Of a stretch of DNA of 64,000 nt, positions 15,240 to 38,933 are shown one piece after another. The translations under genes were made by a program, and so were the position numbers. Position 1 is the first letter of the stretch; each line of letters begins with the position of its first letter. The notes beneath the pieces were generated by a model that was given only the letters and a program-made list of their open reading frames with translations, was not told the origin of the DNA and made no database searches. Source of the DNA: a virus; IMG/VR virus record IMGVR_UViG_3300042387_001967; one strand, given 5' to 3'.

Positions 15240-15276
15240 GCTTGTGATTGTGATTGTGATTGTGATGTTGTTGCGC

Positions 15277-20170: not shown

Positions 20171-22084
20171 CTATTTCTGCATGACATCCGCCAGCGGCAC
20201 ACGCCCAGCGAGGACGTCCTCGAGCTGCTGCTTCGTCAGTCCCATCATCGTGCGCGCGGCGTCTTCCATCGCTGGATTGAGGATGGGCCGCGGCAGACGA
20301 ATGCGGCCCCACCGCTCTCCATTCAGCAGCCGATTGTCGAAAAGGCCACCGGGGATCGGTGTCAGGTTGCGAAGATTTACCATCTCGCCGTTTTCGACGT
20401 CGATCGGATCGCGCTCGTCCAGGTCGCCGTCCGTGAATGGCGCGAGGCGATACTTGCCCTTGCCGGAGTTGCGCGTGTTGATGCCGGCGCCCGCCAGCAG
20501 CGCGCGGAACTTGTGCCAGACAAACGGCTCGCCGATCTTTGGTAGCGTCTTGTCCGTGCGCAGTGCCATCCAGAAGTCGTGATTCTTCTGCCCGCGGATT
20601 GTGGCATTCTCCCGCATCAGCGAGTAGGCCCCGCTGGACAGTGTTGCAAAATTCTCGAGACCCGAGAAGCGTTTGGCCTGTGCGAATTCGCCACCGCCGC
20701 GCGTCGGCTGCTGATTCTGGTCGTAGCTGCCCGTGCCGCGGGCGCTGATCTTGCCTTCCGACGTGTGGTGGAGCTTGTGGACGAAACCGTAGCCCACCGT
20801 CACCGGCGCATCCAGCGTCCGGCCTTCTTCCGGATCGTAGACCATCTCCTGTGACTGCACGCCATTCTCGCGTTCCAACTGGTCGATGTAGTCGTTCCAG
20901 TTTTGTCCCTTCGGCAGGTAGCTGGGCAGCTTCAGCGCGTGCCCCAGCTTCTTGGCGACCTTGCCGAGCCGCAGCTCGTGCTGTGACGCCGGGTTCGCCC
21001 GGGAGACCAGGGACAGCGGATTGAGCAGCGCATCCAGCGGCTGTCCGTCCTCCGTCCGCGGCATCTGGTCGTCGGGAATGATCTTCGAGACGGTCGCCTT
21101 GGCGCCCTGCCGCAGCACGATCTTGTCTCCGACTTCCGTCGGCTTCAGGAATTTCAGCACCACCTTGTAGCCGTTCTTGGTCGCGCGCGCGGCGATGACC
21201 TGGGCCGGCTGCTGTCCGTGCCACACCTGAGCGGCGTCGCGGCGCTGCTGCCTCAGCGCCTTGCTGAGGCGCCCGATGTTTGCGCCGTCTGACGACAGCG
21301 TGCGAGGCATCGTCGCGAGCATGACGGGGTCGCCAGACTCCAGCACGGTGCCAGGTCGCACCAGCCCGTGTTCGTCAAAATTTTCCAGCTTCTCCTTGGT
21401 GAAGCGGTTCGGGAAGAGGGCGCGGTAGTGGCTGAGACCTGTCTTCAGATTGTCCGAGCGGTCCTGGTGCATCACCTTGTATTGGACGGCGGACAGGCGC
21501 TTGGCGAACGACTCGCTGACAGGCATGGCGTCGTCCATTCCGAAGCCCTTGAATGGCACCAGAGCGATGCGGGCGTTCAGCCCCATGTTTTGCACGCCGT
21601 TGTCGTCCGTGTAGGACGATGCTGCCATCATCTGCCCGGGTTTGAAGGTGTCACCTTTCTTGAGCAGTGCGCGGGAGGTTATGCCCGATTTCTGGTTGAA
21701 AAATTGTTCGTTGTACAGGTCGACGTCCGCCGTCTCGCCGTCATCGTAGGAGACGCGGATGTAGTCCGGCGTGACGCTGATGACGCGACCGGCACGCTTG
21801 GCGCGGACGGCGCCCATGTTCTCGCCGACGATTTCGTCAAAGCTGCGCCCTTCGGGGTCGGACGTGTCCAAGTTCTGGATCAGCGGAGCTTCGCCCTTGT
21901 CGATCGCCAGCGCCTGGTTCGCGAACCGCGCGCCGTAGAACAGCCGCGGCGCTTGCACTGCTCCCGCCAGCGGAATCATGTTGGTGTGTGACCCAAACTG
22001 CTGCGAGGGCGAGGACAGCTCGTAATCGACATCCGGATCGTCATCCGGCACCTCTTCGAGGCGGTTGTTGCGTACGACGTGCAT
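20171..22084 (-). CDS. multisubunit RNA polymerase: beta C-terminal half fused to beta' N-terminus
   Basis: Beta motifs: NMIPL..EAPLI, GLNARIALVPFKGFGMDD, GDKIVLRQGAK, QMPRTEDGQPLDALLNPL..SRAN, HKLHH..KISARGTG..QQP. These are followed by a beta' N-terminal pattern: ENGEMVNLRNLTPIPGGLFD..WGRIRLPRP. Confidence 0.92.
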   Translation of the reverse strand: MHVVRNNRLEEVPDDDPDVDYELSSPSQQFGSHTNMIPLAGAVQAPRLFYGARFANQALAIDKGEAPLIQNLDTSDPEGRSFDEIVGENMGAVRAKRAGRVISVTPDYIRVSYDDGETADVDLYNEQFFNQKSGITSRALLKKGDTFKPGQMMAASSYTDDNGVQNMGLNARIALVPFKGFGMDDAMPVSESFAKRLSAVQYKVMHQDRSDNLKTGLSHYRALFPNRFTKEKLENFDEHGLVRPGTVLESGDPVMLATMPRTLSSDGANIGRLSKALRQQRRDAAQVWHGQQPAQVIAARATKNGYKVVLKFLKPTEVGDKIVLRQGAKATVSKIIPDDQMPRTEDGQPLDALLNPLSLVSRANPASQHELRLGKVAKKLGHALKLPSYLPKGQNWNDYIDQLERENGVQSQEMVYDPEEGRTLDAPVTVGYGFVHKLHHTSEGKISARGTGSYDQNQQPTRGGGEFAQAKRFSGLENFATLSSGAYSLMRENATIRGQKNHDFWMALRTDKTLPKIGEPFVWHKFRALLAGAGINTRNSGKGKYRLAPFTDGDLDERDPIDVENGEMVNLRNLTPIPGGLFDNRLLNGERWGRIRLPRPILNPAMEDAARTMMGLTKQQLEDVLAGRVPLADVMQK

Positions 22085-22087
22085 GCG

Positions 22088-24184
22088 CTAGGACTGAGCC
22101 GCGGCGAGGCGCGGATCGGTTGTGATCTGGTTGCCGTAGATCTGACTGATGATCCCCATCCGATCGGGTGAGTTTACCATGTCGGACTCGCGCATGTAGC
22201 GCGGCGGCTGAGGCGTAGTGAGACGCTTCTTCAGCATCCAATCGAACATCGTGTCTCCAAGCGCTCCGTAGGATGCGCGATAGAGTCCAAGCCGCGGAAA
22301 CAGCGCGTTGGCGCCGGCGTGATTGTTGAGCATCTGCCCTGATTCGGGCGCGAGATGCCGGAAAGGCTTCGGCACGGTCCGTCCGGTCTCCGGGTCGATC
22401 GAGCCGGGCACACCGGCGGTGCCAGTGGTGTAACTATCGTTGCCGTTGACCTGCAGACGCCCAGGTGCAGGAGGTCCGATCATCGGCGGCGGCGGACTTG
22501 CGACTTCGGGCGGCTCGGGCGGTATGCCGGTGGTGTAGGATCGTCCGTTCACCACCGTGTTGCCCTGCGCGGCCGCCTTGATTTGACCGACACGCTTCTG
22601 CAGCCGATCGATGCGGTTGCCGATCAGCCGTCCGGCGATCGTGTTCTCGCTGTCGCTCGCGGACGCCGCGCCGTCCGCCTGGGCCTTGCCCATCGCGGCC
22701 GTCATCTTCGCCTGCTCCTTCTGCACTGCGGACGTGGCCTTTGCCTGCTCCTTCTGCAGTGCAGCCGTGGCCTTTGCCGTCTCGAGCTGCAACTTCAGCA
22801 CTTCTTTTTCCTGCTGCTGCTTGCCCAGCTCTTGCTGAAAGCGCTGCTCCTGCTCCATCTGCGCCTGCGTGGCTGCCTGCTCCGTCTGGCCCTGCTGCTG
22901 TGCAGCGGCCTGCTCGGCCTGCATGGCTTTTTGTTCGGCCTGCATCACCGCAGGGTTTGCGGCCGGCGGTGGCGTGATGGAGTTGGCAGTCGCCTGCTGC
23001 TGATTCTGCATCCGCAGCGCTGGGTTCTGTCCGAGCTGCGGCGGCACTGGGACGGCGCCGGCCGGCGCTGGTCCTAGCGCATACTTGGTGAGTTCGGCGA
23101 CGAGACCCACCAGCGACGCAGCGGACTTCTCCACAGGCTGCGGCTGCTTCTCGTTGCGATGCTTCGTGCGCGCGCGAGTTTCCGTGCGCAGGCGGCGGCG
23201 TGTATCGCGCCCCAACCGCTGCAGCAGCGTGTTTGAGAGCTGCAGGTTTCCGACAGGCATCTGAATTTGCGTTTCGATGTCGCCGGGGTTCGCTGTCGGC
23301 AGCGTGACGCTCGCCGTCCCGGCTGAGTCCAGAGCCAGCCGCTTCTGCTCCATGTCGCTGTTCTGCTTCGCCTTGTAGAGCAGTATACCGAGGGCACCCA
23401 GGCCGAGCCCGCCGGCTCCCAACCAGACTTCCTTCGGGATGGATTTGATCGGGTTCTCGGCTGGCGGTTTCGCGCGGTCGTGTGCAAAGGATTTCGCCGC
23501 CTCGGTCGCCGCGTTGTCGACGTTGTAGAGAGTGCCGACTCCTTTCATCGCGAGATCTTTGGTCGGCGCGAGCGCGATAGCACCGAGCCCGGTGAGGACG
23601 TTCTTGCTCGCGATCTGATGTCCGCCGACGGCCCCGAGCAGGGCGTTCAGCCCGCCCATCAGCGTGCGCTCCTTGTCCCACTTCCACGGTTGGAAGGTGC
23701 TGCCGATCGGACGCTTCGTGTCGGCCGCCTGGTCGAAGAACGCGGTCGTGCCGAGTGCTCCGAGAACGCTGGCCAGCGCTTGGGTTTTGGTGTTCGCACA
23801 CTTCTCGATGACCTCGATGTTCAGACTGCGCGCCAGGGCCTTGGACGGCGAGTTGTGCCGCATGATCATGGCCTTCACGTCATCGCAATGATCGCGGACT
23901 TCCCGGATGACTTGCGCGACGGCCGACTTCGCGAAGCCACGCTCACGGTAGGCCGGCAGAATGCCGACCGCGTAGTATCCGACTTTTTTTTCGCCCTCGT
24001 CGAACTTCTGCCAGCCGACAAAACCCACCGGGTCCGCGGTGGCAGATTCTTTCACGAGATACAGCCCGCCGTTGAACTGATTGGTCTTCAGTCCGTGCGG
24101 CCAGTAGGACGGATCCTCGTGCAGGATCCGACTCATGATGCCTTCGACGATGGGCAGCTCGGAGGCCGCGGCAACTTTGATCAT
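22088..24184 (-). CDS. GNAT acetyltransferase / glycine-zipper / coiled-coil multidomain protein
   Basis: Likely start MIKVAA at 24184. GNAT motif A VGILPAYRERGFAKS and NSPS; then GxxxG hydrophobic helices and a Q/A-rich coil. Confidence 0.75.
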   Translation of the reverse strand: MIKVAAASELPIVEGIMSRILHEDPSYWPHGLKTNQFNGGLYLVKESATADPVGFVGWQKFDEGEKKVGYYAVGILPAYRERGFAKSAVAQVIREVRDHCDDVKAMIMRHNSPSKALARSLNIEVIEKCANTKTQALASVLGALGTTAFFDQAADTKRPIGSTFQPWKWDKERTLMGGLNALLGAVGGHQIASKNVLTGLGAIALAPTKDLAMKGVGTLYNVDNAATEAAKSFAHDRAKPPAENPIKSIPKEVWLGAGGLGLGALGILLYKAKQNSDMEQKRLALDSAGTASVTLPTANPGDIETQIQMPVGNLQLSNTLLQRLGRDTRRRLRTETRARTKHRNEKQPQPVEKSAASLVGLVAELTKYALGPAPAGAVPVPPQLGQNPALRMQNQQQATANSITPPPAANPAVMQAEQKAMQAEQAAAQQQGQTEQAATQAQMEQEQRFQQELGKQQQEKEVLKLQLETAKATAALQKEQAKATSAVQKEQAKMTAAMGKAQADGAASASDSENTIAGRLIGNRIDRLQKRVGQIKAAAQGNTVVNGRSYTTGIPPEPPEVASPPPPMIGPPAPGRLQVNGNDSYTTGTAGVPGSIDPETGRTVPKPFRHLAPESGQMLNNHAGANALFPRLGLYRASYGALGDTMFDWMLKKRLTTPQPPRYMRESDMVNSPDRMGIISQIYGNQITTDPRLAAAQS

Positions 24185-24224
24185 GCGGAATGCTACCGCA
24201 CTTTCCGTCGCAGGTAAAGAGGAA

Positions 24225-24260
24225 GCAGCCGCCGCCACCGGTGAGGGTGGCGGCGGCTGC
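24225..24260 (-). terminator. 15-bp stem hairpin followed by a pyrimidine tract
   Basis: GCAGCCGCCGCCACC-ggtgag-GGTGGCGGCGGCTGC; on the minus strand followed by TTCCTCTTTACCT. Confidence 0.65.
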
Positions 24261-24290
24261 GACGATTTCCTTGTAGTGGTTGCGCGCGGC

Positions 24291-25190
24291 TTACGCCGCG
24301 CCGTCCTCTTTTGCGGCGTCGAACGCCGCTGCGACGCTGCCCTCGAACGCAGCGTGAACTTCCAGCCCGCCTCCGCCGTGTTGCGCACTATAGCGAGCGG
24401 TCCGCGCGCTGTCGCGTTTGACTTTCGCCGCCTTACGCATCTCGCCCTCCCCAGTAAGCTCGCGAACAAGCACGGGGGGCGCTCCGATTATTTTCGGAAT
24501 CGTTGCCTTGTCGAACCCACCAAAGCACTGGCACGCGGCGAGGAATGGGTCCCACGCTGTGACGTGGTTCTCGGCGAACTCCCGCGCCGACGGGGCCAGT
24601 CTGGCCATGAGGTCTGACGCGCTGGAGCCAGGCACTACCATGCCTTTCACCTCTTTCCATGTCCGAGGGTCCAGATACTGCTCGGCATTCTTGCTGTTCG
24701 GCAGGTGTCCGTCCATCCGCTTTAGAGGATCCAGGTAGCCCTTCATGATCCCCCAGCCTGCCGCCGTGGGCAGCAGGCGTCCCATGTAGGCCGACAACCA
24801 CGGGATCTCGACCATTTTGATCGTATAGTCGCGCCGCGCCTCGTCACCATCCAGGACTGTCACCGTCGCATCCGGATGTTTGCCGGCTTTCATGCCGGCC
24901 GCGACCATCTCTAGCGTAAGCGACACCACGTGATGTCGCGTGTCCGACTCCTTCCTGCGGAACATAGCAGCCAAGACCGCCAGGATTTTACTGTCGTCGT
25001 CAAGGACGGTGAGTGCGCACATTTCCATGCTGGAGAGGAAGCAGCCACTCCATCGGTGACCGTAGTCGGTGCTGAGACGTTCCGGAGACGTCTGTTGTAG
25101 CCGCGGGTCCTCCAGTGGACTCAATGGCAACTGGGCAATTGAGGTTTTATATTGCTGCTTAGTCTCTTGATCGTAGTTGTCGTTATCCAT
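24291..25190 (-). CDS. hypothetical protein
   Basis: 299-aa ORF after an (AACC)n leader. Confidence 0.7.
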   Translation of the reverse strand: MDNDNYDQETKQQYKTSIAQLPLSPLEDPRLQQTSPERLSTDYGHRWSGCFLSSMEMCALTVLDDDSKILAVLAAMFRRKESDTRHHVVSLTLEMVAAGMKAGKHPDATVTVLDGDEARRDYTIKMVEIPWLSAYMGRLLPTAAGWGIMKGYLDPLKRMDGHLPNSKNAEQYLDPRTWKEVKGMVVPGSSASDLMARLAPSAREFAENHVTAWDPFLAACQCFGGFDKATIPKIIGAPPVLVRELTGEGEMRKAAKVKRDSARTARYSAQHGGGGLEVHAAFEGSVAAAFDAAKEDGAA

Positions 25191-25252
25191 TTTACTTGGT
25201 TGGTTGGTTGGTGTTCGTTACGCGAACGGCATGAATTGCCGCTAGCAATGTA

Positions 25253-25678
25253 TTATGACGCAATCCGCGTCATTTTTGCATGGAGCGCCGCGTGCTCCTG
25301 AACACTCACCTGCACCGTCATTGGCGGTTTTCCGCGCAGCTTCGAGCTATACAACCCCAGAATCCGCCGTGCCCTACCCTCCAGGCGACCGTTGATGTCC
25401 CGCGGACGCAGCGTCCAGCCGATCACCGGCAGTCCTTTGAGATTCCATTTGAGCACCCGGATGAAGTAAATGCGGGCCGGCTGTCCGGGTAGTCGCAGCT
25501 GATCCAGCGCTCCTATCAGTTTTCCGTAACGGTCGATGCGGTAGATCACCGACGGGTAGCATGGGATCTCGGCCAGGCTGTAAATCAAGCTGATGGCCCG
25601 CTTCGTGTCGCGTATCCCGTACACGACCACTGAGTCCAGCGGTTTGCTTACGGCGTCCGGTGTCGGAGCATCAGCCAC
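25253..25678 (-). CDS. basic hypothetical protein
   Basis: Probable GTG start at 25678 overlapping the upstream stop. Confidence 0.5.
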   Translation of the reverse strand: MADAPTPDAVSKPLDSVVVYGIRDTKRAISLIYSLAEIPCYPSVIYRIDRYGKLIGALDQLRLPGQPARIYFIRVLKWNLKGLPVIGWTLRPRDINGRLEGRARRILGLYSSKLRGKPPMTVQVSVQEHAALHAKMTRIAS

Positions 25679-26384
25679 GCGGGTAGAGCACCTGCACCGC
25701 CAGCCGGCGCGTGAGGTTGACAGACACCCCGTCGCGTCCTGGCGGAATGTCGGCGGAGCAGTCGGCTGCGTCGAACGGCACATCGAACACCTGCACGTCG
25801 TAGCGTCGGTTCCCTTTCCCGGCGACGATACAGACCTGCTTGCCGCTTTCGATGGCGTTGATGACACCCTCGATCTCCGCCTTCGCCTCTTCGATACCCA
25901 TGAGCGAGCCAATGTTCTTAAACAGCGATGCGCGCGCTGCGGCGGACAACCGCACCGCCGGGGTTGTCGGAACTTCTGATCGTAGATGCTCAACGGTGGC
26001 GCTCGTCACCGCGGCGAATGCGTCAGTCACCGCGGATGGGATAACGACAACGGACAGGTCGCTCGCGGCTGTTGGCTGAGTCGGAATGGCGATGTCGATA
26101 TGCGCATCCAAGCCGTCCACGATCCGCCTGGAAATCTCGGCTCGCGTGCCTTCCGTATCGAGTCCCATGGATATAACGACAACGGACGGGTCGCTCGCGG
26201 CTGTTGGCTGAGTCGGAATGGCGATGTCGATATGCGCATCCAAGCCGTCCACGATCCGCCTGGAAATCTCGGCTCGCGTGCCTTCCGTATCGAGTCCCAT
26301 GGATTCCGCGATGGCAATCACATCCGTTTTGCGGGGCAGTTCGGCAAGTGATTCGATGGTGTGAGGCGTAGCGGATTCGTTCAT
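25671..26384 (-). CDS. hypothetical protein with duplicated SAP/HeH-like segment
   Basis: KTDVIAIAESMGLDTEGTRAEISRRI resembles SAP/HeH; a 44-aa segment is present twice. Confidence 0.65.
   Translation of the reverse strand: MNESATPHTIESLAELPRKTDVIAIAESMGLDTEGTRAEISRRIVDGLDAHIDIAIPTQPTAASDPSVVVISMGLDTEGTRAEISRRIVDGLDAHIDIAIPTQPTAASDLSVVVIPSAVTDAFAAVTSATVEHLRSEVPTTPAVRLSAAARASLFKNIGSLMGIEEAKAEIEGVINAIESGKQVCIVAGKGNRRYDVQVFDVPFDAADCSADIPPGRDGVSVNLTRRLAVQVLYPRG
26041..26304. repeat. tandem 2 x 132-bp duplication
   Basis: 26041-26172 and 26173-26304 differ at one base (CCG/CTG, Pro/Leu). Confidence 0.95.
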
Positions 26385-26397
26385 GGTGTCGGGTTGG

Positions 26398-27174
26398 TTA
26401 TCGGATTTTGACGTTGAGACCAGCTTGGAAGTCGGTCACTTTCTGGAGCATGACATCCTGGTCCAGGCAGGTAAAGGCGAAAGGATACTCAGGGTCGCCG
26501 GCACACTTGTTCTTCCGCTTGCGCACGTCCCTCCAGTGCGCGTCGAACGTCGAGTCGGAGATCGGCTCCGCTACCACGCCGTCGTCCACCTTCGGATAAA
26601 CCTCCCGCAGATCCTCGAACATGAACTCAGGACGCGGCGGACGCTCCCATCGTTGCCACAGGCGCAGGGCCAGCTCCGCGGCTTTCTGCACTTCCATGGG
26701 CGCGTAGATGAAATACTCGCGATGCGTCGGCTCGATCTGGAACTTGCTGTGATAGACCAGCAGCGTCACGATGTATGGCACCTGCGCACGCACAAGCGAC
26801 TCGCGAATCGGATCTCCGGACTGTCCGCTATCGTCGTAATTGCCGACGCGAGCCATCCCCTGGATGTAGTAGGTCCGCATCTGCTTGGCGGACAGCACCG
26901 CGCCGTGCTTCGGATTATCCACGGGCCGCCCGAGATGATCCCGCAACTGCACATTTTTGAAAATCTGCGCGTGTCTGGCTGTGTTTTCCATGCCCCAGTA
27001 ATGCGTCGCCGCCCGGATTCCGTCAACCCGTTTCTCTCTAAGCAAATTACGTTTCGCGCCGGGTATCATGGGTCGGTGCAGTGTATTTGACAATCCGTGA
27101 TACCCTGGTCTCGTGCGCGGCGCCCCCGAACGCGTTGAGCTACCGCGTCTTACAGATTTCGACTCGAGTATCAT
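26398..27174 (-). CDS. hypothetical protein
   Basis: 258-aa ORF; alternative start MIPGAK at 27069. Confidence 0.6.
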   Translation of the reverse strand: MILESKSVRRGSSTRSGAPRTRPGYHGLSNTLHRPMIPGAKRNLLREKRVDGIRAATHYWGMENTARHAQIFKNVQLRDHLGRPVDNPKHGAVLSAKQMRTYYIQGMARVGNYDDSGQSGDPIRESLVRAQVPYIVTLLVYHSKFQIEPTHREYFIYAPMEVQKAAELALRLWQRWERPPRPEFMFEDLREVYPKVDDGVVAEPISDSTFDAHWRDVRKRKNKCAGDPEYPFAFTCLDQDVMLQKVTDFQAGLNVKIR

Positions 27175-27241
27175 TTTGCCTCTTTTGAACTTCCCGATCG
27201 AGTATCATTTAGCCGTTTGCATGATACCTTTCTTCTGGGTC

Positions 27242-27814: not shown

Positions 27815-27841
27815 GATGATGTGATGGTTGTTGGTGTACGC

Positions 27842-27877
27842 AAAAAGCCCGGTCACCGCACTGGGCGATGACCGGGC
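27842..27877 (-). terminator. intrinsic terminator
   Basis: GCCCGGTCA-loop-TGACCGGGC followed by TTTTT on the minus strand, just downstream of the 27910 stop. Confidence 0.75.
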
Positions 27878-27909
27878 AGATGAACCGCAAAGAAATTCTA
27901 CATTTTGTC

Positions 27910-29385
27910 CTACGCGCTGGCCACGGCGTCCGACGCAACCGCCGGCTCGAGAATCGGAGACTGCTCCTGCTTCATCGCCATGAACTGATCGACAGGGTCC
28001 GGGTTGTTCGGCTGCAACCGTTCGCCCTGCTCCTGCATCATGTCGCCGCCCTCGGCATCCTCACTCATGCCGCCGGCAGAGTCAGACGTGAGTTCCTCCT
28101 GCATGGCGTCGCTGACTGCCGGATCTCCGGACGGCATCCGACCTTCAAGCGCGGGGTCCGCCGCCAGCATATCGTCGCTGATTGCCGGGTCTTCGGCCAT
28201 CATCTGTTCGAGCTCTGCGGAGAGCTGTGTGTCCGCCGCGGTCTTTTCCAGAATCTGCGGACGGAAATAAGTCAGCTGCAGCAGGGTGGCAATTCCGGCG
28301 AATTTTTCGATCTGCTCTTCGCCGTGCGACAGGACCTCGTCATACAGACTCGGCACGAGATCGGCGAACTCCGCAGCGGCCAGCGCTGCGACAACGGGCC
28401 GGAGCCTGGCGGACTTGCAGATCGCAACCGCCGCAAGCGCGCGCTCTGGTAGCGGCAGCGGCTCATCCGATGCTCCGCGGGCGAACTCCACCAACGCTTC
28501 CATTCCGCCGTCGCGCTGGGTTTGCACCATCCCGGCGATACCATCCCGGGCTGCCTTGTGCAGCAAGTCCGAGGTGACACACACCGATGCCGATTTTTCG
28601 TGGGCCATCTGATCCACAGCCAGCATCAGGAATTCCTGGGCCGCAGCTTCACAGTCCGCCTCCGCCCACAACGTCGCGGCCGACTTCAGCTGCTCTTCGT
28701 CGCCAACCTCCGGCTCACTCAGGTGGCCGTCGGCAGCCACCTGGCGCACGCGCTTCGGGTATCTGGACTTCGGTGTCTGGACTGTCGGAAAGGCTTTGCG
28801 CAGTGTCGCGAAAGTGACCCCGCCGGCCGCGAGCGCAGCCAGCAGCGGCAGCGCCACAGGCGTCGCCGAGATCAGGTCATACAGATTCATCTTGGCATCC
28901 ACTGCCGGAGCCGCCGCGGCACGTTTCGACACCTCGAGGTCCGCGGCGAGAAGCGCCTCGCCCTGCGCTTCGTCCAGCAGCTTCTGCTTGTGCTTTTTCT
29001 GCAGGTAATTGTAGACGGCCTGGGTCAGCGCGTAAGCGCCGCCGGCGCCCAGAATGCCGCCCGTGACAGCCAACCCGGGCGCGATCCACCGATTCACGTC
29101 TGACGCAGACTTCTGCTGCGGGTGCGGGGATGAGATGTAGAGCGTGTCGTCGTTCAGGCGCGATTTGTCCGCGAGCTCGTTCTCCTCGCGCAGCGACTTC
29201 AGATAGTTCAGCAGCGCCACGACCGCGCTGGCGCCGGCCCCCAGGGCCATGCCGCCGACGGCCATGTTGCGCACGAGACTTGTTCCGCGCGCGTCTTGCG
29301 CGGCGGCTACATCCGGCGAGTTGACCGTGCCGGTGAGTTTACCGGCGGCTCCTCTTGCTACAGTTTCGATCAGGTTGGTTGGCAT
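27910..29385 (-). CDS. glycine-zipper membrane-type virion protein (putative)
   Basis: Three hydrophobic GxxxG helices; five K-x-A-[AS] motifs; acidic tail. Confidence 0.7.
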   Translation of the reverse strand: MPTNLIETVARGAAGKLTGTVNSPDVAAAQDARGTSLVRNMAVGGMALGAGASAVVALLNYLKSLREENELADKSRLNDDTLYISSPHPQQKSASDVNRWIAPGLAVTGGILGAGGAYALTQAVYNYLQKKHKQKLLDEAQGEALLAADLEVSKRAAAAPAVDAKMNLYDLISATPVALPLLAALAAGGVTFATLRKAFPTVQTPKSRYPKRVRQVAADGHLSEPEVGDEEQLKSAATLWAEADCEAAAQEFLMLAVDQMAHEKSASVCVTSDLLHKAARDGIAGMVQTQRDGGMEALVEFARGASDEPLPLPERALAAVAICKSARLRPVVAALAAAEFADLVPSLYDEVLSHGEEQIEKFAGIATLLQLTYFRPQILEKTAADTQLSAELEQMMAEDPAISDDMLAADPALEGRMPSGDPAVSDAMQEELTSDSAGGMSEDAEGGDMMQEQGERLQPNNPDPVDQFMAMKQEQSPILEPAVASDAVASA

Positions 29386-29389
29386 GGTG

Positions 29390-30446: not shown

Positions 30447-30451
30447 AAATG

Positions 30452-31315: not shown

Positions 31316-31551
31316 CGCCGTCCTCCACTTCCGTTCCCGACGTGCGGGGAGTTCTGTCCTGGATACTTTGCCACCCAGTTCTCCGAGTCAAACCGGTCCG
31401 CTGCGTCTGTCGCACTTCCACGCGGAGTCGCCGCGTGATCGTGGTCGAAACTCAGTTCGCCTTCCGTCAACTTCTTGGACGCGGCTGCGGCAACTTCCTG
31501 CACCGCCGCCTCGCGGAGTTTTCGTGGGTATTGGGATTTCTGGTGAGACAT
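31312..31551 (-). CDS. hypothetical protein
   Basis: 79 aa, ATGA-coupled. Confidence 0.55.
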   Translation of the reverse strand: MSHQKSQYPRKLREAAVQEVAAAASKKLTEGELSFDHDHAATPRGSATDAADRFDSENWVAKYPGQNSPHVGNGSGGRR

Positions 31552-31569
31552 CGCATCGAGACTATACGA

Positions 31570-33441
31570 TTATTGCTGCTGTCCGGCAAGCATTTGCCCG
31601 ACTTGGGCGCGACCTTGCGAACCAGCCTGCGCGCGCATCTTTTCCATGGCGTCTTTCGCCGCGGCGTAAAGCGTCGGATTGATTGCCTCGGCCCGCTGCA
31701 TCTCCTTGCGGTGCGAATTCGGCTGCTGCGTGTGCATCTGGATCCACTGCTGGGCGATCTCCTGGGCGCGCTGCTGCACCATGGTCGGGTCAGCATTTGT
31801 ATCGACGGCGTAATCCAACGGAGAAGCGGGGGCGCCGCCTGCGCCGGCCGCCGCACCAGCCCCGCCCTGAGCGGTCTGCTGCATGGACTGCTCGGCCGCT
31901 GCCATTGCGAGATCGGCCATGGAACCCTGCGTGCGTTCCTTCTCGTAATTCTTCGCAAGCTCTTCGGCTCCGCGCTGAATCTCCTGATCCTCCTCGATGG
32001 CCCGAATGTTCGCGGCCTCCGGGTCGGTGACTCCGATGTCCGGGTAGACATCCTTTCGGGGGATCTCGCGGTTTGCGGCGAGCTGCATGCGCAGCTGCAT
32101 CCACTCGGCGTTGTATGCCACGACCGGACGCTTGAGTCGCACCTCCATCTCCTTCGATTCGAAGGCTCGCTGCACCGTGCGCGCGATAAATTTGAGCAGC
32201 CCGTCGAGTTCTGCGTAGAGCCACTCATACTGCCGCTCGAACATGCGAATGGCATTCGGCAGCTGCTCCGGATTCAGCGTGCCACGGAATAATTCACGCG
32301 GGAATCCAAGCCCGTCGAACAGCTGGTTGGTGTATGCCTCCACGACGTCATACAGCACCATGGCCTTGCCTCCGCCGTCGAAGGTCTGCATCTCGATCGG
32401 GAACGGCACCGCGTGGATCGATGTGGCGTCCCTCCGGCGCGCGGCGATCATGTTCTGCATCTCCGAGCGCCAGCGCGACATCAGTGTGGTGAGCACGGCG
32501 TCGCCGATGTTTCCACCGAAGTTCGGACTCAGCACTCTCGTCGGATGCAGGAATTCCTGCGCGACGGCGAAGTCCGCCTTCCGGTAAATCGCCAGTTGGT
32601 AGAGCGCATCGTAGTGCATCAGCACTTCCGGCACTGCCCATCCGGAATCGGAGACTCCGCACGGCGTCGGCGATCGAAAATGATGCACCTCGCCCTTGCG
32701 GAATCGATAGTCCTTGTTCTTCGAGATCGCCTCCAGCAGACCGCGCGGCGTGTTGTTGATCTCGTGCAGCTTGTTGTGCTTGACCCTGGCCTCCATGTCC
32801 GGAGGAATCCGGTAGATGTATTCCGTCGTGTCCGCGTGGTGCGGCGAGTCCAGATCCACGTAGCGCGGGTCCAGGAAGATGATGGAGAAGCGGTCAGGCG
32901 CAGCAGACGGCTTGTCGCGGAATTCCAACCTCACAGTCGGCAGATCGGCCATCTTGCGCTTTTGTTTCGGCAGCTTCGCCGCCGCTGCCATGTCCGGCAC
33001 CTCGTAAACCATATCGGACCAGTGATACTTCACCAAATGTTCCGGAAATATGTCCAACGAAATGGCGCGCTGGAGTCCGTCGCGGTTGTCGACGAGCCAG
33101 CGATCGAACGGCTCGACGCAGCGGACGAACGCCTGGCCGTAGATGGCCCACTCTGTGCCGGCCTTCTGCATCTTCGAGAAGATGCGCAGCGTTTCCGTCA
33201 GCAGCCGCTCCAGCTTCTTCTGTTCGTCCTTGTCGCCCGCGTCGACGAATTCGATCCCGGTGATGAAATAGGAAATTACCCGGTTGCATACTGCTCCGTA
33301 CAGACGGTTGGTCCGGTAGAGATAGAGACACAAGTCGAACGTGGACTTGATGTCGCTCGGGAATGAATCTGTCGACGGAAGCAGGAATGGATCTCCAAAC
33401 TTTTTGGAACCGTTCAGAAAGGAGTTGGAGATGACGGCCAT
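31570..33441 (-). CDS. putative portal protein
   Basis: 623 aa. The N-terminal pattern GDPF..P...Y.AVCNRVISYFIT...YGQAFV resembles large-phage portals by recall, and the gene sits in the virion block. Confidence 0.6.
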   Translation of the reverse strand: MAVISNSFLNGSKKFGDPFLLPSTDSFPSDIKSTFDLCLYLYRTNRLYGAVCNRVISYFITGIEFVDAGDKDEQKKLERLLTETLRIFSKMQKAGTEWAIYGQAFVRCVEPFDRWLVDNRDGLQRAISLDIFPEHLVKYHWSDMVYEVPDMAAAAKLPKQKRKMADLPTVRLEFRDKPSAAPDRFSIIFLDPRYVDLDSPHHADTTEYIYRIPPDMEARVKHNKLHEINNTPRGLLEAISKNKDYRFRKGEVHHFRSPTPCGVSDSGWAVPEVLMHYDALYQLAIYRKADFAVAQEFLHPTRVLSPNFGGNIGDAVLTTLMSRWRSEMQNMIAARRRDATSIHAVPFPIEMQTFDGGGKAMVLYDVVEAYTNQLFDGLGFPRELFRGTLNPEQLPNAIRMFERQYEWLYAELDGLLKFIARTVQRAFESKEMEVRLKRPVVAYNAEWMQLRMQLAANREIPRKDVYPDIGVTDPEAANIRAIEEDQEIQRGAEELAKNYEKERTQGSMADLAMAAAEQSMQQTAQGGAGAAAGAGGAPASPLDYAVDTNADPTMVQQRAQEIAQQWIQMHTQQPNSHRKEMQRAEAINPTLYAAAKDAMEKMRAQAGSQGRAQVGQMLAGQQQ

Positions 33442-33454
33442 CGGTTAAAGCGTG

Positions 33455-34261
33455 TCAGTTTGCGCGCGGACGATCGAAGTCCAGCCTGGCTGCCCCGGCG
33501 ACATTAGCGACGGATTTGCCGACCTCCGGGAACCGCGCGCTGGCGCTCTTCTCGCCCTCCGCAATGGGCTCGCCGGTTTCGTCGTCAACGCGATCGCTCG
33601 GTCGTCCGGAAACGACCGAAGGAACTCCGTCATGTAATACGCCTTGTTTTTCCACGCTGGCAGACTGAGGCAAAAAGCAGAGCAAGTCAATCCCAACCCC
33701 CGGATAAAGCTGCATCGGCGGCGCCAGGCACAGCACGCGCACGCGCGGGGAATCGCGGTGCTCCAGAAAGCTGATCTCCAGTTCAGATCCCGGGTGCGGC
33801 GCGAACATCGACTCCGAAGATCTCACCATGATCAGCAGCAGGTGCTTGACGCGATGCAGATGCATCGGCTCGGCGCTGCTCCACGCGACTGGTGATTTGA
33901 CGTCGCCAATCGGCGTGTGGAACACCAGCGTGAGTTTCTTCCTGGTGCGATCGCTCAGGCACTTGGCCACGGCCAGCAACTCGCTCTCTGCCTCGGTGCC
34001 GAGCAGTTGCACAAGCACCGGTGGTATGCGTATTCCCGCTTCGCGAACCGTGACAATGGGCGAGTCCGGAATGTCATACTCCGGCGTCGGGACCGCAGGA
34101 ATGCGAATTGTGGCCTGCTCGATTTCGTCCGCTTCGATGACCTCGCTCAGGTCTCCGCTGCGCATTCTCGCCACCAGCGCGTCGGTGGCGTCACCTGGGT
34201 TCGGGGGTCTGGATCCGGACTTCGCGCTCGAGTCCGGCGGCATGGTGGGTTGTGAGTGCAT
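33455..34261 (-). CDS. hypothetical (virion block) protein
   Basis: 268 aa; GEKSAS near the C-terminus. Confidence 0.65.
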   Translation of the reverse strand: MHSQPTMPPDSSAKSGSRPPNPGDATDALVARMRSGDLSEVIEADEIEQATIRIPAVPTPEYDIPDSPIVTVREAGIRIPPVLVQLLGTEAESELLAVAKCLSDRTRKKLTLVFHTPIGDVKSPVAWSSAEPMHLHRVKHLLLIMVRSSESMFAPHPGSELEISFLEHRDSPRVRVLCLAPPMQLYPGVGIDLLCFLPQSASVEKQGVLHDGVPSVVSGRPSDRVDDETGEPIAEGEKSASARFPEVGKSVANVAGAARLDFDRPRAN

Positions 34262-34907
34262 TGATTCTGGTAATGTGACGTTCGACTAGGTCGTAGGTCA
34301 TGGGTTGCTTGTCGATTCTGCCGTCTATTTTGTGGTGCCGGCTGACGAACATACGGCGCTGTCCATCTGCGCCCCGTTCCATCGTCGCGACGATTCGGTG
34401 CGGTGCGAATTTGTCAGCCAGCGGTATCAGCTCCGGGTGCTGCGTCAGGGAGACGTCCACGCTCGTCGGCCAGCCGGCGTCGTAGCGCAGCGTGAACCAG
34501 CCGCGTAGCCCGAACGCGTTGAACGCGAGAACGCAGATCGACAGCGCGCAATCGGTGGCCAGCTGCATCGCTTCCGAGAAAGTTGCCGCCGACGCCCATC
34601 CCACCATGGCCTCCACGCAGGTGCGCGTCACCCGCGCGGGTGCCACGCTGCTCAGCGGCTGGCCGACGACGTCGCAGATGCGCGCAGCCCGCCCGGTTCG
34701 CATCCGTCCGCGATACGGCTTGCTTTTGGAAAGCAGCCGCTTGGCAGTAATCTGCGAGCAGTTCAGCAGCTTCGCAACCGCAGCGCAGCGGTTCGGGAAG
34801 CCGTCGGCATACGAGGACAGGTATTGCATCAGCAGCGGAGTCGACTCCGCTGGCAGCAGACGGTTCTCCGCCCTGCCGATGACACCACCGGCCGGTCCCG
34901 CTGACAT
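34191..34907 (-). CDS. putative HTH DNA-binding protein
   Basis: CAAVAKLLNCSQITAKRLLS fits a helix-turn-helix pattern. Confidence 0.45.
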   Translation of the reverse strand: MSAGPAGGVIGRAENRLLPAESTPLLMQYLSSYADGFPNRCAAVAKLLNCSQITAKRLLSKSKPYRGRMRTGRAARICDVVGQPLSSVAPARVTRTCVEAMVGWASAATFSEAMQLATDCALSICVLAFNAFGLRGWFTLRYDAGWPTSVDVSLTQHPELIPLADKFAPHRIVATMERGADGQRRMFVSRHHKIDGRIDKQPMTYDLVERHITRINALTTHHAAGLEREVRIQTPEPR

Positions 34908-35090
34908 TTACTTCGAGCCCATGATAGTCTTGAAGAATCCGGACACGTTGCGCTCGCGCCGCGTGTCCTGCTTCACATAACTCGCATTCAGCGCGCTGCG
35001 GCGGGGCTCCGCAATGATCGCTGTGCTGTTGCCGTAACCTTGGTGGCGGGCGTTGCGGATCTGCTCTTGTGTGGGTTGGGATTGGCTCAT
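34908..35090 (-). CDS. small hypothetical protein
   Basis: Start MSQSQP at 35090. Confidence 0.55.
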   Translation of the reverse strand: MSQSQPTQEQIRNARHQGYGNSTAIIAEPRRSALNASYVKQDTRRERNVSGFFKTIMGSK

Positions 35091-35094
35091 GGAA

Positions 35095-36906
35095 TTAGTC
35101 GGGTAGTTTGAGGGTCTTCCCCCGCAGGTTGCTGGGGCTGACCCACTCCTTCTTACCCGTGCGCCGGTTGACGAGCAACTGATAAATTCGACCGTCAGAT
35201 CCGACACGTGCGCCGTGCGCCAGTCGGACGTCGATGCCGGCTTTTTCAGACTCCGGCCCCGCGATCGGATCCACGAAGCCGAACTGCGTGGCGCTGACTG
35301 CCGTCATGTCGTCCGTGATGGCATTCGGGTCGCCGATGCCGCCGGGTCCCATCTTGGTGATGCGACGCTTCTGCTCGAGGATGTGCATCGGGTTGATCTC
35401 CTCCAGCGCTGTGACCAGCGGATTGGACTTGAGGTAGCCCATCGTGTATCCGCCGAACGCGTCCGGGCCCACAGGGTCCAGGGTGCGCATGCGGCTCAGC
35501 CGTCCCATCATCGCGCGCAGGGCATGTCCGTGGTCGAGCTTGATGCGCTCGGCCATCAGGCGGTCCACCGTGTGGACGCGGTCGTTCGGCAGGCTGTCGC
35601 GGTCGTCCGTCTCAGCCAGGCCGCGGTTCACGGCCAGCAGCTTCTCGGTGGCAGCCAGCAGGCCGTCGATGCCCACCGGTGCATACTTCTCGTGCTCGTC
35701 GTCGTCCGCCAGGTAGCGGTGATGCGCCATGGGCGACTTCATCGGCGCTTTCGGCATCGGCTTCGGGACACCGATCGGGACGTAGGTCGATGCCGCCTTC
35801 GCAAACGCAGTCGGGCCATAATCCTGCGGATTGGCAAGCTGGTCCTCGTAAATGGGCACCTCACCCATCAATTGCCGAAGGGCGCGCGCCGTCACATTGC
35901 CGTGCAGCGCGTTATCCCGATGGGTCAGGTTGAACCGATCCGCCACCCACTTCCGACGATCGTCAGGCGTCTTGTCGAAATTCCTGATGAAGCCCTGCCG
36001 GGTGTTGAACGTCATGACGTCATCATCCACCATCTCCACCCGATGCAGCGGCTCATCCTCCTCTGGCTCGATCTCGGGATGTTCCAGCCCCTGCGCGACG
36101 AGGTAGGCGCGCAATTTCTCCAGTGCGACATCAGCGTGCTTGTCCTCCACCGATGCGTGCACATCCCCGGTGTGGGCGTCATTCACGGCCAGGCCCGAAG
36201 CTTGCAGCTCCTTGAGGATCGCGTGCCAGTTCTTCCGCAGCCCCACGCCCTGCAGCTTGTCGCCGGACAGCCGGAAAGTCTTCGCCATCTTTTCCATCGG
36301 AAACTCCAGATACTTCGGATCAATCTTCCCCGTCGGATGGATGATCTGGACGTGCGGCACGTCGCCGGCATACCGGCCGTGCCCGGGCTCGAAGTGCTTC
36401 CACAGTTCCTTCGGATTCTTCGCGCGCTCGATGAGCTGCTTGATCTCATCGATCTTCAGGTCGTGATGCCGCGCGGCAAGGATCGGCTCCTTCTCTTCGT
36501 CCGACATGGCGTCCCACTCCTCGTCGCTCAGATGTCCCCACAGCGACTTCCCTGGGGCCAGCTCGACGCCGTGCAGGCGCGTGTCTGGCGCGTCCCGCAG
36601 CAGGGCTTCGAGATCGATCCGCAGCGGCACAGACTTCCGCTGGTTCATCGGGTGCGTCGCGTCGCCCTTGATGCGGTCCGTGTCGGGCTGGCCGAAGAAT
36701 GCGGACGGGCCGGCGAACGACGCCTTCCACGGTTCCTCCTTCAGCTTCTTCTCCCGGAATGCCAGCCACTCGTCGGCCGCCTTGCCGGGGCGCGCGAGTT
36801 CCAGCAGGTGCCGGTTCTCCGGGCGCGCAAGGATGTCGCCGGACAGCAGCCCGTGCTCACGGACGGAGTCCAGCGTTTCTTCGGGGATGTAGGACAGGAG
36901 TTTCAT
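35095..36906 (-). CDS. polyprotein: ART-like + acylphosphatase-like + RNA polymerase beta middle fragment
   Basis: C-terminal DDRDSLPNDRV, EEINPMHILEQKRRITKMGPGG and FGFVDPIAGPES form the beta fork/Rif region. Central KLQGVGLR..GLAVN is the acylphosphatase signature. N-terminal LDSVREHGLLS..GKIDPKYL is ART-like. Confidence 0.85.
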   Translation of the reverse strand: MKLLSYIPEETLDSVREHGLLSGDILARPENRHLLELARPGKAADEWLAFREKKLKEEPWKASFAGPSAFFGQPDTDRIKGDATHPMNQRKSVPLRIDLEALLRDAPDTRLHGVELAPGKSLWGHLSDEEWDAMSDEEKEPILAARHHDLKIDEIKQLIERAKNPKELWKHFEPGHGRYAGDVPHVQIIHPTGKIDPKYLEFPMEKMAKTFRLSGDKLQGVGLRKNWHAILKELQASGLAVNDAHTGDVHASVEDKHADVALEKLRAYLVAQGLEHPEIEPEEDEPLHRVEMVDDDVMTFNTRQGFIRNFDKTPDDRRKWVADRFNLTHRDNALHGNVTARALRQLMGEVPIYEDQLANPQDYGPTAFAKAASTYVPIGVPKPMPKAPMKSPMAHHRYLADDDEHEKYAPVGIDGLLAATEKLLAVNRGLAETDDRDSLPNDRVHTVDRLMAERIKLDHGHALRAMMGRLSRMRTLDPVGPDAFGGYTMGYLKSNPLVTALEEINPMHILEQKRRITKMGPGGIGDPNAITDDMTAVSATQFGFVDPIAGPESEKAGIDVRLAHGARVGSDGRIYQLLVNRRTGKKEWVSPSNLRGKTLKLPD

Positions 36907-37220
36907 AACGTCGCGCAGGTTGGTTGCGGCATGCTGCGTATCCAGACTGCCTCCACCCTGTGCTCGATCCCGCTCATGCCCAAAGGAGGGCGATGAGTAG
37001 TGACGTATTCAAGCGTTCCGCGCATGAGATCAGTCACCGCCTTGATTTGAGCATCGCACGTGTCTGACAATTCTTGCGTCAGAGTCCCGTCGCCGGGCAG
37101 AGAGATTACCATGAACCACATGTCTTCGTCCGCCGCCTTGCGTATCTCGAAAGGCAGAGCGAAAACTCCCAGCGCCTCATAGCCTCCATGTTGTGCTTGT
37201 GTCATTTGTGATTGTGTCAT
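36903..37220 (-). CDS. hypothetical protein
   Basis: Start MTQSQM at 37220. Confidence 0.55.
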   Translation of the reverse strand: MTQSQMTQAQHGGYEALGVFALPFEIRKAADEDMWFMVISLPGDGTLTQELSDTCDAQIKAVTDLMRGTLEYVTTHRPPLGMSGIEHRVEAVWIRSMPQPTCATL

Positions 37221-37221
37221 T

Positions 37222-37449
37222 TTATTGTAGATCCTCCGGTTTGCTGTATCCCCCAAGTGAGCACTCAGACACGCGCTCCGTGCCAGGTATCTGCACTCGG
37301 TAATGACGCACCTGGAATCTTACATCATCCCGAGGTTGCCTAAGCCCGCACGTGAGCAAATTGATCACATCTTCTTCCTGATCCCTGGTAGGCGGGGCAG
37401 CAGACTCCGTCGTAATTTCCACCTCGAATTTGTGCGTGGTTGTCGTCAC
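37222..37449 (-). CDS. small hypothetical protein between 24-bp direct repeats
   Basis: 75 aa, ATGA-coupled; ends GYSKPEDLQ like the upstream gene (GYIKPEDLS). Confidence 0.55.
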   Translation of the reverse strand: MTTTTHKFEVEITTESAAPPTRDQEEDVINLLTCGLRQPRDDVRFQVRHYRVQIPGTERVSECSLGGYSKPEDLQ

Positions 37450-38933
37450 GACAGATCCTCCGGTTTGATGTAGCCCTCCAGCGCCAGCGTCATCAGCTCC
37501 CCAGGTCCAGGGGTGCCGACCGCGTCAGCGCCGCGACCGCGCGCCAGCTTAGCCAGGCGTTCGCGCTCGGAGTCGTCGAAGTCGTGCCGCTGCATGTAGT
37601 GGCGGACATACTCCTTGCGCCGGTAGCCTTCCATCCCCTCCTTGAAGTCTTCCCGCTGCTTAGCGGGCAGCAGCTTCAGCGGGTCGATGCCCCAGTTGAC
37701 CAGGGCGAACGCGCGGCGTGGTGTCGGCTTGGCCTCGAACTGCGCGCCGGTCCGAGCCTTGAAACTTTTCCACCTGGCGATCTGCTTCTCGTCTGTCTCG
37801 CCGCGGCGACCGGTGTGGTAGTTCTCATACCACTGCAGCCAGCCCTGCTTGTCGGTGTCGTCCAGCCAGTGCTCCGGCCACGCGCGCATGGACGCAAGGC
37901 GCGGACCTTTGCCGCCGTAGATCGCGTTGTAGGACTCCTTGAGTTCGTCCGGCGTGAAGTCCGGGGAGAACGCTGCGCGCTTGGTCAGCGGCACGTCGAA
38001 CGATTCCCACTGTCCCCAGATCTGTTCGGGCGTGAAGTCAGGATCGAACGGGACGGCTGCCGCCTTGGTCATGCGGTCGGCTGCGTCGATCGCGGTCCCC
38101 GCCATCCTCCAGCTTGCCGCCTTCTCGTGGCTGTAGAGGTTCGGCAGGTTCTGCTTGAGAATCGACTCCGCCACCTGGGCGCGGTCCAGCGCCGCCCGGA
38201 TGTCCTTCACGCGGTCCTCTGGCGCACGCGCGGGGTCGCGCTCCCACTTTGGGATCACCTTGTTGTACACGCGGTCCAGTGTATGCCTCGAATACTTCGC
38301 CCGGTTGGCTTCGAGAATCTCCGGCCCCCACCGACGCGCGAGCTCCTCGTCCGTCACCCCGAGGTCCTTGAACACCGAGTAGGCGTGCAGGTCCGACGAT
38401 CCCACCTTGAGACGATACTGCGCCGTGCGCGGGTCGAACGACACCCGCAGGGCCGAGCCGGTGCCGGGGCGCACGTTCAGATGCGTCTCGAGCTCGCCAT
38501 TGTCCCGGCGTCGCGTGTAGGCCCCAGGCAGCAGGCGCGACTGCATGGCTGGGGCATACTCGGATCCGTTCTCGATGAACGTCCCGCGCTCCGTCAGGTA
38601 AGGCACTCGGGCCAGCGTCACATTCTTGCGCTCGTCGAGCACCTCGTTGGTCACGTCGTCCACGAGCCGCATCGTTCCGCGCAGCCGGCGCACGAGCGAC
38701 TTGTCGTCCAGCAGCGCCTCGCGTTGCTCGGCTTTGGTGAACCTCGCCGGACCGACATGCTTCATGTCTTTCAGCTCCAGCCGGACTCCGCCGTAGGCGT
38801 AGCCGTTGACGTAGCGCTGCATGGACTGCATCACAGAGGTATCGATCGCCTCCCGCGTGGCGTCGGAATCTTCCGGGTCGCGCAGCGTGACGCCTTCTGG
38901 CGGCTCAGGGATGTCGGAGGATGGATTCGGCAC
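37446..38933 (-). CDS. RNA polymerase beta N-terminal fragment fused to a GWLQWY-type domain
   Basis: LARVPYLTERGTFIENGSEY..SRLLPGAY corresponds to the beta N-terminal motif (IPxMTxxGTFIING..SPG). C-terminal GWLQWY..GRR..DEKQIARW domain. Confidence 0.85.
   Translation of the reverse strand: MPNPSSDIPEPPEGVTLRDPEDSDATREAIDTSVMQSMQRYVNGYAYGGVRLELKDMKHVGPARFTKAEQREALLDDKSLVRRLRGTMRLVDDVTNEVLDERKNVTLARVPYLTERGTFIENGSEYAPAMQSRLLPGAYTRRRDNGELETHLNVRPGTGSALRVSFDPRTAQYRLKVGSSDLHAYSVFKDLGVTDEELARRWGPEILEANRAKYSRHTLDRVYNKVIPKWERDPARAPEDRVKDIRAALDRAQVAESILKQNLPNLYSHEKAASWRMAGTAIDAADRMTKAAAVPFDPDFTPEQIWGQWESFDVPLTKRAAFSPDFTPDELKESYNAIYGGKGPRLASMRAWPEHWLDDTDKQGWLQWYENYHTGRRGETDEKQIARWKSFKARTGAQFEAKPTPRRAFALVNWGIDPLKLLPAKQREDFKEGMEGYRRKEYVRHYMQRHDFDDSERERLAKLARGRGADAVGTPGPGELMTLALEGYIKPEDLS

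Follow-up and report, generated by a model that had tools for sequence, protein, structure and literature searches.

Salmonella phage Arash (OQ632216) and Vibrio phage D69 encode a multisubunit RNA polymerase (RNAP) in two genes. Arash gp206 (1525 residues) and D69 gp0261 (1527 residues) each carry β and the front of β′ in a single chain, and the back of β′ is a second gene (gp216 in Arash). In purified Arash virions gp206 gave the most spectra (3516), more than the major capsid protein, with 1210 for gp216 and 467 for the sigma-like gp10 (PMC10585845). The Arash paper names the RNAP subunits; the fusion, the short K-x-A motif considered below and enzymatic activity are not described there (PMC10585845). 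Phages of the phiKZ type have two RNAPs, the virion form consisting of at least five core chains (two β, three β′), and both enzymes are broken after the β′ barrel, as in cyanobacteria (PMC7598289); Iyer et al. counted three β parts in virion RNAPs (PMC7824862). Here we describe the RNAP of the virus recorded as IMGVR_UViG_3300042387_001967, starting from a 64,000-nucleotide stretch of its DNA (the window), which corresponds to bases 92381-156380, reversed, of a 184,016-bp contig. One two-barrel RNAP is encoded by five open reading frames (ORFs), and by its sequence it appears to be a fragmented member of the Arash-type lineage.

We call the five pieces A (β-N), B (β-middle), C (βC-β′N), D (β′-middle) and E (β′-C). 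Each is single-copy in the complete genome, and all lie on the same strand in canonical order, separated by 0.5 kb (A-B), 13.0 kb (B-C), 42 kb (C-D) and 25 kb (D-E, across the origin) (Table 1). The pieces were mapped onto E. coli RpoB and RpoC with profiles built from homologues. A preliminary description of the window had recognised the ORFs of A, B and C and proposed a three-way split of β, which the mapping upholds. It took the whole first ORF for β-N: the N-terminal match stands (RpoB 113-223 and flanks, E = 3e-7), but only residues ~20-268 are polymerase and the other ~225 residues are cargo. The C-terminal 198 residues of the second ORF match RpoB 423-580 (E = 1e-18; Pfam Rpb2_3). Polymerase sequence makes up about half of the piece A ORF and one third of the piece B ORF, the remainder being cargo, which in the piece B ORF takes up the first 370 residues. 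Piece B stops at the equivalent of Arash gp206 residue 469 and piece C begins near 478-483, in agreement with the abutment described earlier. Piece C matches RpoB 648-1336 (E = 8e-75; Pfam Rpb2_6) and then runs in frame into RpoC 12-62, as had been proposed; beyond RpoC 62, through the equivalent of ~100-141, it was aligned by eye, and the chain ends at the β′ clamp-head variable loop. The catalytic-side residues are indeed kept, D185, K321, K329 and H440 aligning with E. coli D814, K1065, K1073 and H1237.

The DxDGD-bearing remainder of β′ had been predicted to lie outside the window. A six-frame scan of the genome located NADFDGD at genome position 179177, as residues 308-314 of piece D (Pfam Rpb1_2, E = 8e-19). 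A further β′-C gene, piece E, matches RpoC 594-1346 (E = 9e-83) and covers the bridge helix, the trigger loop and the β′ C-terminal Zn site with its four Cys. Thus β′ too is in three parts, giving five core genes, beyond the three-way split of β described before. No α subunit was detected in the genome (14 of 14 controls were positive), and no second RNAP set was found in the complete genome.

The breaks are genuine. Assembly error or frameshift was discarded as their cause: independent strains of ~95% identity show identical ORF limits, and A, B and C are separate genes in distant IMG/VR relatives. An alternative genetic code was also rejected: the stop codons of A, B and C are TGA, TAA and TAG, and the pieces have unrelated genes between them. 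The ratio of nonsynonymous to synonymous substitutions (dN/dS) against the relative G003 is 0.11-0.21 for the cores of A, B, C and D (A 0.14, B 0.13), indicating purifying selection.

The best phage matches of pieces A, C and E, and matches near the top for B and D, are Arash and the Vibrio phages D69, D148 and D181. Pieces A to D tile Arash gp206 in order (49-235, 270-469, 483-1112 and 1148-1524). Piece C and gp206 are collinear (E = 4e-87), with β reading into a β′ N-terminus that lacks the Zn-binding domain, and piece E matches gp216 over residues 12-610 (E = 4e-70) with the same gene limits. The likeness holds at ~24-31% identity along all five pieces and includes the β-to-β′ read-through, the break before β′-C, and a head protease, capsid K-x-A and sigma-like gene; the protease and the gp10-like sigma belong to a head module common to both phages. 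An orthologue of the second Arash sigma (gp196) was not found. Arash differs in having A-D as one 1525-residue chain from one gene, with no cargo and no intein. Here the single A+B+C+D chain of the Arash-type two-chain form is replaced by four ORFs, spread over 64 kb and two of them with cargo. Since A-D are collinear with gp206, the βC-β′N chain is therefore a remnant of a whole β-β′N fusion. It is not a new fusion, and the earlier description needs amending here: the junction is inherited from the whole chain of the cultured phages (Arash gp206, D69 gp0261).

Profile mapping sorted 150 representatives at 50% identity plus added loci by chain type: 77 were ABCD, 12 BCD, 38 CD, and 51 had only C. 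The C region was also used for a FastTree tree (root on E. coli; only outgroups YerA41 and E. coli), in which Arash/D69 and other ABCD chains branch first. The phage described here falls in an 81-sequence clade (support 1.0) that is nested among ABCD-fused chains. In every member C is the start of a chain, save one sequence with a truncated N-terminus; a few C-initial chains are scattered outside the clade. Fragmentation therefore started from a fused chain; by the polarity of the tree, the break between B and C (B|C) falls on one branch. The five-gene state is common in the clade rather than a peculiarity of this genome. Near-complete IMG/VR relatives encode A and B separately, at least 18 homologues have them fused, and piece E was present in 14 of 14 records tested. 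One 22-sequence group, which includes gut phages, has a seamless join between C and D; several other groups connect them by a K-x-A linker, and elsewhere they are split. In a few relatives (P0343, P0335, P0339 and P0349) D is joined to E, so that β′ is unbroken after the barrel, one of them being C+D+E.

The K-x-A motif recurs where polymerase sequence meets cargo. Of 27 homologues in which piece A has an insert or tail, 26 show K-x-A after it, where core windows predict 2.4; of 23 with cargo ahead of piece D, 17 have the motif before D, against 2.3 expected. All 18 A+B fusions have it at the junction, some with cargo in the linker; in the AlphaFold model of one of them (P0155) linker residues 276-343 mostly have a predicted local distance difference test score (pLDDT) <50, and the model matches bacterial β as one unit (E = 2e-19). 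Among the C+D fusions seen with a linker of at least 20 residues, a single one lacks K-x-A; those with it include Arash and D69, where a ~40-residue insert with the motif sits exactly at the C|D break. The capsid protein also has the motif in its leader (K28 here, K27 in Arash), and in Arash gp220, gp223 and gp225 it occurs densely. By genome block it is enriched among head (ratio 1.43) and RNAP/portal genes (1.34), but not among replication (1.06) and accessory genes (0.83). The codons of K-x-A vary synonymously, and the signal therefore lies at the protein level. A DNA recombination site is unlikely, given the free codon variation and the fact that strain identity breaks a few codons before the left-side motif. 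The sequence EKYA in piece B was dismissed as a cut site for want of conservation; K370 is the site that is conserved.

The modules bounded by K-x-A are exchanged between genomes. The tail of piece A is homologous to a module inside the A+B fused relative P0191. Cargo 1 of the piece B ORF, a possible ADP-ribosyltransferase (ART; weak DarT/PARP-like signal, Atlas feature score 0.91, PF00644 on 38% of members), is homologous to a module that P0178 carries in its A-B linker, and the C-D linker of L028 contains a look-alike. Cargo 2 is replaced or absent in strains P0122-P0125, which have ~95% DNA identity, are 99-100% identical in piece B and retain K-x-A on each side; at the same position more distant relatives have a kinase-like AAA_33 or an InPase module. 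K-x-A-bounded cargo, which the preliminary description had overlooked, is the likely reason for two of the breaks. Directly upstream of piece C, 3 bp from its start, lies a GNAT-headed K-x-A protein, possibly a packaged effector. In strain L091 a 261-residue gene between piece A and the 77-residue ORF (L091:3960-4745) has a short leader ending EKSAA and resembles stand-alone cargo with a capsid-type leader. A 1280-residue head-block protein (L002:9153-12995) combines eight K-x-A[AS] sites with an InPase domain and a weak match to zinc peptidases, and looks like polyvalent-type cargo.

A protease that could read this motif is encoded in the same genome. Of 19 records searched, 18 yielded the head protease, Arash and D69 among them; it has an invariant His and Ser. 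K-x-A bounds the protease domain, with a K-x-A-S end in 12 of 15 aligned relatives. Its fold aligns with T4 gp21 (VIA-align Z 10.3, root-mean-square deviation 3.0 for 131 residues) and also resembles herpes assemblins, which have Ala at P1; Foldseek alone gave only E = 0.02. One short motif is thus common to the capsid leader, scaffold-like proteins, the protease and the cargo. Proteases of the gp21 fold read three-residue signals, A-x-E in the case of SPN3US (PMC10052503). A literature search, with subscription journals mostly outside its coverage, found no paper on the five-piece architecture or on a K-x-A phage protease.

Piece D contains an intein directly after NADFDGD (L001:15176-17101), the removal of which yields the sequence of the 81%-identical, intein-free relative G003. 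It begins with Glu, has TDDDPR in block B and ends in LSN|T; its C-terminal blocks are near-invariant, with no conserved Cys. Among inteins at this site, 69 of 73 lack Cys or Ser at position 1 and the invariant C-terminal splicing motifs are kept; position 1 shows no need for Cys, Ser or Ala, with Q, E and D most common. The family is widespread at the RNAP catalytic loop and has an invariant His108 and Ser106 and no block-F Cys; we take it to lie outside the three intein classes. These features argue for an atypical route by which splicing would still work. In gut phages the same intein is naturally split, with an N-part of 12-13 residues right after the catalytic DFDGD and a C-part 1-6.5 kb downstream, adding one gene, and the active site of their RNAP would be built by trans-splicing. 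RNAP pieces in the clade are intein hotspots (P0126-P0240, P0361-P0412, G008-G025), with recurrent insert sites at B core position 148, C ~132, ~325, ~360 and ~456, D ~155 and 292, and E ~195 and ~320. The RecQ-like helicase at window positions 38978-41626 has an intein beginning with Cys; in strains L091 and L092 the helicase gene is intein-free (575 residues), and an additional 147-residue gene precedes piece A.

Our best model, to which we assign a probability of roughly two in three, is a virion-packaged, head-protease-trimmed, five-piece RNAP of the Arash lineage. We favour it because of the Arash virion data, the occurrence of K-x-A at capsid, protease and RNAP borders, the collinearity and the purifying selection. 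The packaging envisaged as probable in the preliminary description agrees with the detection of Arash orthologues in purified virions (PMC10585845). The ancestor would have had two chains, one of β and the front of β′ to just past the NADFDGD barrel and one of β′-C. The long chain would have been cut into four genes at surface loops, in the β lobe, the interval between fork region and β barrel, and the β′ clamp head. The five chains would assemble without α and be packaged in the prohead, where the gp21-like protease would cut at K-x-A, trimming the cargo off A and B and freeing it as separate proteins, while the intein would excise itself from piece D. RNAP, sigma-like factor and cargo would then be injected and start phage transcription. 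As to the history, the lobe and clamp loops may have first acquired K-x-A linkers and cargo, so that the mature enzyme already came in separate pieces there, and splitting the gene at these points had no cost; the B|C break would be older in the clade and have no link to K-x-A. Taken jointly, the graded series of genomes in this widespread phage family would show a β-β′ fusion gaining K-x-A linkers in its surface loops, exchangeable injected effectors docking at them and the gene splitting there, with the outcome a mature α-less five-chain enzyme that has β and β′ in one chain and relies on an intein without Cys/Ser1 beside its catalytic aspartates. We hold this complete series only tentatively, at somewhat less than even odds.

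Several observations weigh against this model. The homologues in which K-x-A was counted are not phylogenetically independent. Pieces C and E have no K-x-A at a leader or border, and the motif is missing from the B|C junction in nearly all fused chains. The gut lineage has the A|B split without a tail or K-x-A, and its C and D are joined seamlessly. Because B|C lacks the motif and the gut lineage splits A|B without tail or motif, the idea that protease cleavage came first covers at most two of the three breaks. The nodes that order the C|D states within the clade are weak (0.65-0.78), and some K-x-A-linked C-D chains may for this reason be re-fusions. The intein lacks the usual first-residue nucleophile and block-B His, so that the usual residues do not explain its splicing. 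The Arash authors caution that co-purification of abundant non-structural proteins is possible, and cleavage sites were not mapped in that work (PMC10585845). Finally, cleavage, assembly, activity and transcription are what we infer for every member of the family.

These points leave room for other explanations. The enzyme might be packaged and split as described with its K-x-A sites uncut, the motif serving as a flexible boundary between modules or as a signal for capsid targeting, with the cargo still attached. There is precedent in the N4 virion RNAP, a polyvalent protein that is packaged unprocessed (PMC5512222), and in the majority of SPN3US head proteins, which are uncut (PMC10052503); Arash gp206 is moreover reported at 100% coverage, a type of figure that looks unreliable given 100% from 2 peptides for other proteins. 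However, K-x-A delimits the protease domain, marks the capsid leader (in Arash at the same position), stands on both sides of the cargo and resembles the three-residue P3-P1 signals of gp21-fold proteases, and we consider uncut chains unlikely. We think it quite improbable that the RNAP stays out of the virion and is produced after infection to carry out middle or late transcription, with the Arash signal due to carry-over. The Arash virion list does include ribonucleotide reductase, primase and ligase, suggesting contamination, and the piece A gene directly follows the replication block (helicase, RecA, family A DNA polymerase); on the other hand, gp206 spectra outnumber those of the major capsid protein, the RNAP genes lie among portal, head and protease genes, and a motif of head proteins borders the RNAP pieces.

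Decay is a further explanation: insertions would have broken up the polymerase, and a dead intein beside its catalytic aspartates would block it. The Glu start and TDDDPR in block B of the intein would fit, as would genes up to 42 kb apart. Yet dN/dS is 0.04-0.21 and all catalytic residues are kept, separate A/B/C genes recur in near-complete relatives, E was found in every record tested, and the inteins without Cys/Ser1 retain their C-terminal splicing motifs; we regard decay as very improbable. The system is real, conserved and probably functional. Arash grows on Salmonella Typhimurium 14028 and its virion proteome exists, making K-x-A cleavage and a packaged RNAP directly testable.

The contig is a complete virus record with a 127-bp direct terminal repeat, circular, and 61% G+C. 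It encodes a family A DNA polymerase, RecA, the RecQ-like helicase with its intein, a probable portal, the major capsid protein as well as the head protease. Matches in metagenome-assembled genomes labelled Verrucomicrobiaceae, Lysinibacter and Oscillospiraceae provide host candidates, although these assemblies are possibly mis-binned. No transfer RNAs were found in the scanned loci outside the window. The B-C gap had been described as 13 kb of portal and membrane-type genes. The length is correct (13.0 kb) and a portal is probable, but the membrane-type character is weak, two Gly-rich hydrophobic stretches being confined to 27910-29385. The family A DNA polymerase (window 47869-51366) has a uracil-DNA-glycosylase-like N-terminal domain, a layout of SPO1 type, and the ORF at window 25671-26384 contains an internal direct repeat of ~45 residues.

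Table 1. Features of the RNAP system and its surroundings. Coordinates are window positions unless marked otherwise.
Feature	Coordinates	Strand	Remarks
Piece A, RNAP β N-terminal part (protrusion and first half of lobe)	38130..38876	-	Residues ~20-268 of ORF 37446-38933; Arash gp206 ~20-261
K-x-A motif EKAAS (K271) closing piece A	38115..38123	-	K290 and K318 mark further copies
Cargo tail of piece A (~225 residues)	37449..38114	-	No Pfam family
Small ORF between A and B	36903..37256	-	Called as 77 residues in strains; no relation to RNAP
Cargo 1 of piece B ORF (35095-36906), residues 1-205	36292..36906	-	Possible ADP-ribosyltransferase (DarT/PARP-like, weak)
Swappable cargo 2 of piece B ORF, K206 (KMA) to K370 (KAAS)	35791..36291	-	Weak acylphosphatase-like start, Pfam E = 0.043
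Piece B, RNAP β middle (second half of lobe, fork region)	35098..35709	-	E. coli β ~415-620
Probable portal protein, inside the 13-kb B-C gap	31570..33441	-	PHROG 2739, E = 0.0035; in Arash the portal adjoins the RNAP gene
GNAT-headed K-x-A protein	22088..24469	-	True start probably ~95 codons inside the ORF
Piece C, β part (ORF 20171-22084)	20477..22084	-	E. coli β ~632-1340
Piece C, β′ part	20171..20476	-	E. coli β′ ~12-141 without four-Cys zinc-binding domain
Piece D (1044-residue ORF; β′ ~180-550, NADFDGD and 642-residue intein)	genome 178250-181384 = L001:14234-17368		Outside window; RpoC 181-550
Piece E (617-residue ORF; β′ ~577-1374)	genome 22709-24562 = L003:2709-4562		Outside window
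Sigma-70-like gene	genome 64605-65369		Outside window
Head protease (T4 gp21-like)	genome 33988-35454		Outside window
Split-intein locus of gut phage	L030:7781-11827 with 18405-19382
Split-intein locus of gut phage	L033:9905-13297 with 18656-19630
Split-intein locus of gut phage	L034:9953-13327 with 14349-15329

The fragmented enzymes of phiKZ, AR9 and SPN3US share with this one an α-less two-barrel RNAP in pieces, at least five virion core chains, a break after the β′ catalytic barrel and head proteins trimmed by a prohead protease (PMC7598289, PMC8287921, PMC7824862). The B|C break lies within ~20-30 residues of the phiKZ gp123|gp71-73 break: gp71-73 starts near the start of piece C, gp71 residue 141 corresponding to C residue 142, and by eye the starts fall at E. 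coli ~649 and ~632. The claim that the architecture differs from phiKZ/AR9 consequently holds for the overall layout, but two break regions coincide with theirs and the phiKZ virion RNAP also has five core chains (PMC7598289). Phages of the phiKZ type have two paralogous enzymes and never β and β′ in one chain, whereas here there is one enzyme with a fusion chain, C. The virion β of phiKZ is broken after the barrel (gp178|gp149), and there is no lobe or clamp-head break. Specificity subunits of gp68 type and an x-x-E cleavage motif contrast with a sigma-70-like gene and K-x-A, and similarity to phiKZ-type sequences reaches E = 1e-7 to 1e-11, compared with 1e-75 for bacterial RNAP. Judged in this way, the enzyme would work like the phiKZ virion RNAP yet falls outside the phiKZ/AR9 group in having one enzyme, a fusion chain, a sigma-like factor and a sequence far closer to the bacterial one.

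Other phages likewise encode a cell-like multisubunit RNAP (mReC phages, YerA41, Rhizobium phage RHph_Y65, PHROG 24349/25354). YerA41 has the same D|E break after the β′ barrel; all these phages have a whole β, a whole or two-part β′ and no β-β′ fusion, unlike the fused C chain here. The archaeal RpoB''|B' break lies not far from B|C, near E. coli β 643. E. coli β cut in dispensable region 1 of the lobe, where A|B lies, reportedly still assembles (work by Severinov from 1995/1996), and whole β-β′ fusions are functional, the Helicobacter/Wolbachia RpoBC fusion being an example. The D|E break is that of cyanobacterial and plastid RpoC1|RpoC2 (PMC7598289). These cellular precedents have no combination of the present breaks, no β′ clamp-head break and no cargo, and all need α. 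The mReC study put fragmented enzymes aside (Weinheimer and Aylward 2020, PMC7481178). In the literature and the systems compared, we found no precedent for a lobe break with cargo, a clamp-head break, or a chain made of the back of β and the front of β′.

The fragmented RNAPs of jumbo phages have been argued to be relics of an unfused state predating the last universal common ancestor (PMC7824862). The tree of the separate Arash-type lineage points the opposite way, to fragments derived from a fused chain. The breaks lie partly at the same regions as in phiKZ, in cyanobacteria and probably in archaea, which suggests that a small number of tolerant loops have been used convergently. To the known systems we add a five-gene map, a direction of change and two gene breaks that overlap probable cut sites, which together suggest a route of gene fission in which the protease cut comes first and the gene is split later. 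They also suggest a way for a virion polymerase to deliver exchangeable effectors. Polyvalent proteins are strings of ART, GNAT, InPase and kinase-like modules that are packaged and injected, with self-processing by a zincin proposed (Iyer et al. 2017, PMC5512222). For these proteins and the protease-processed head cargo of T4 and SPN3US, processing has been proposed or shown; the difference from polyvalent proteins is that here the carrier is a fragment of a two-barrel RNAP, and its modules are bounded by one short motif, K-x-A.

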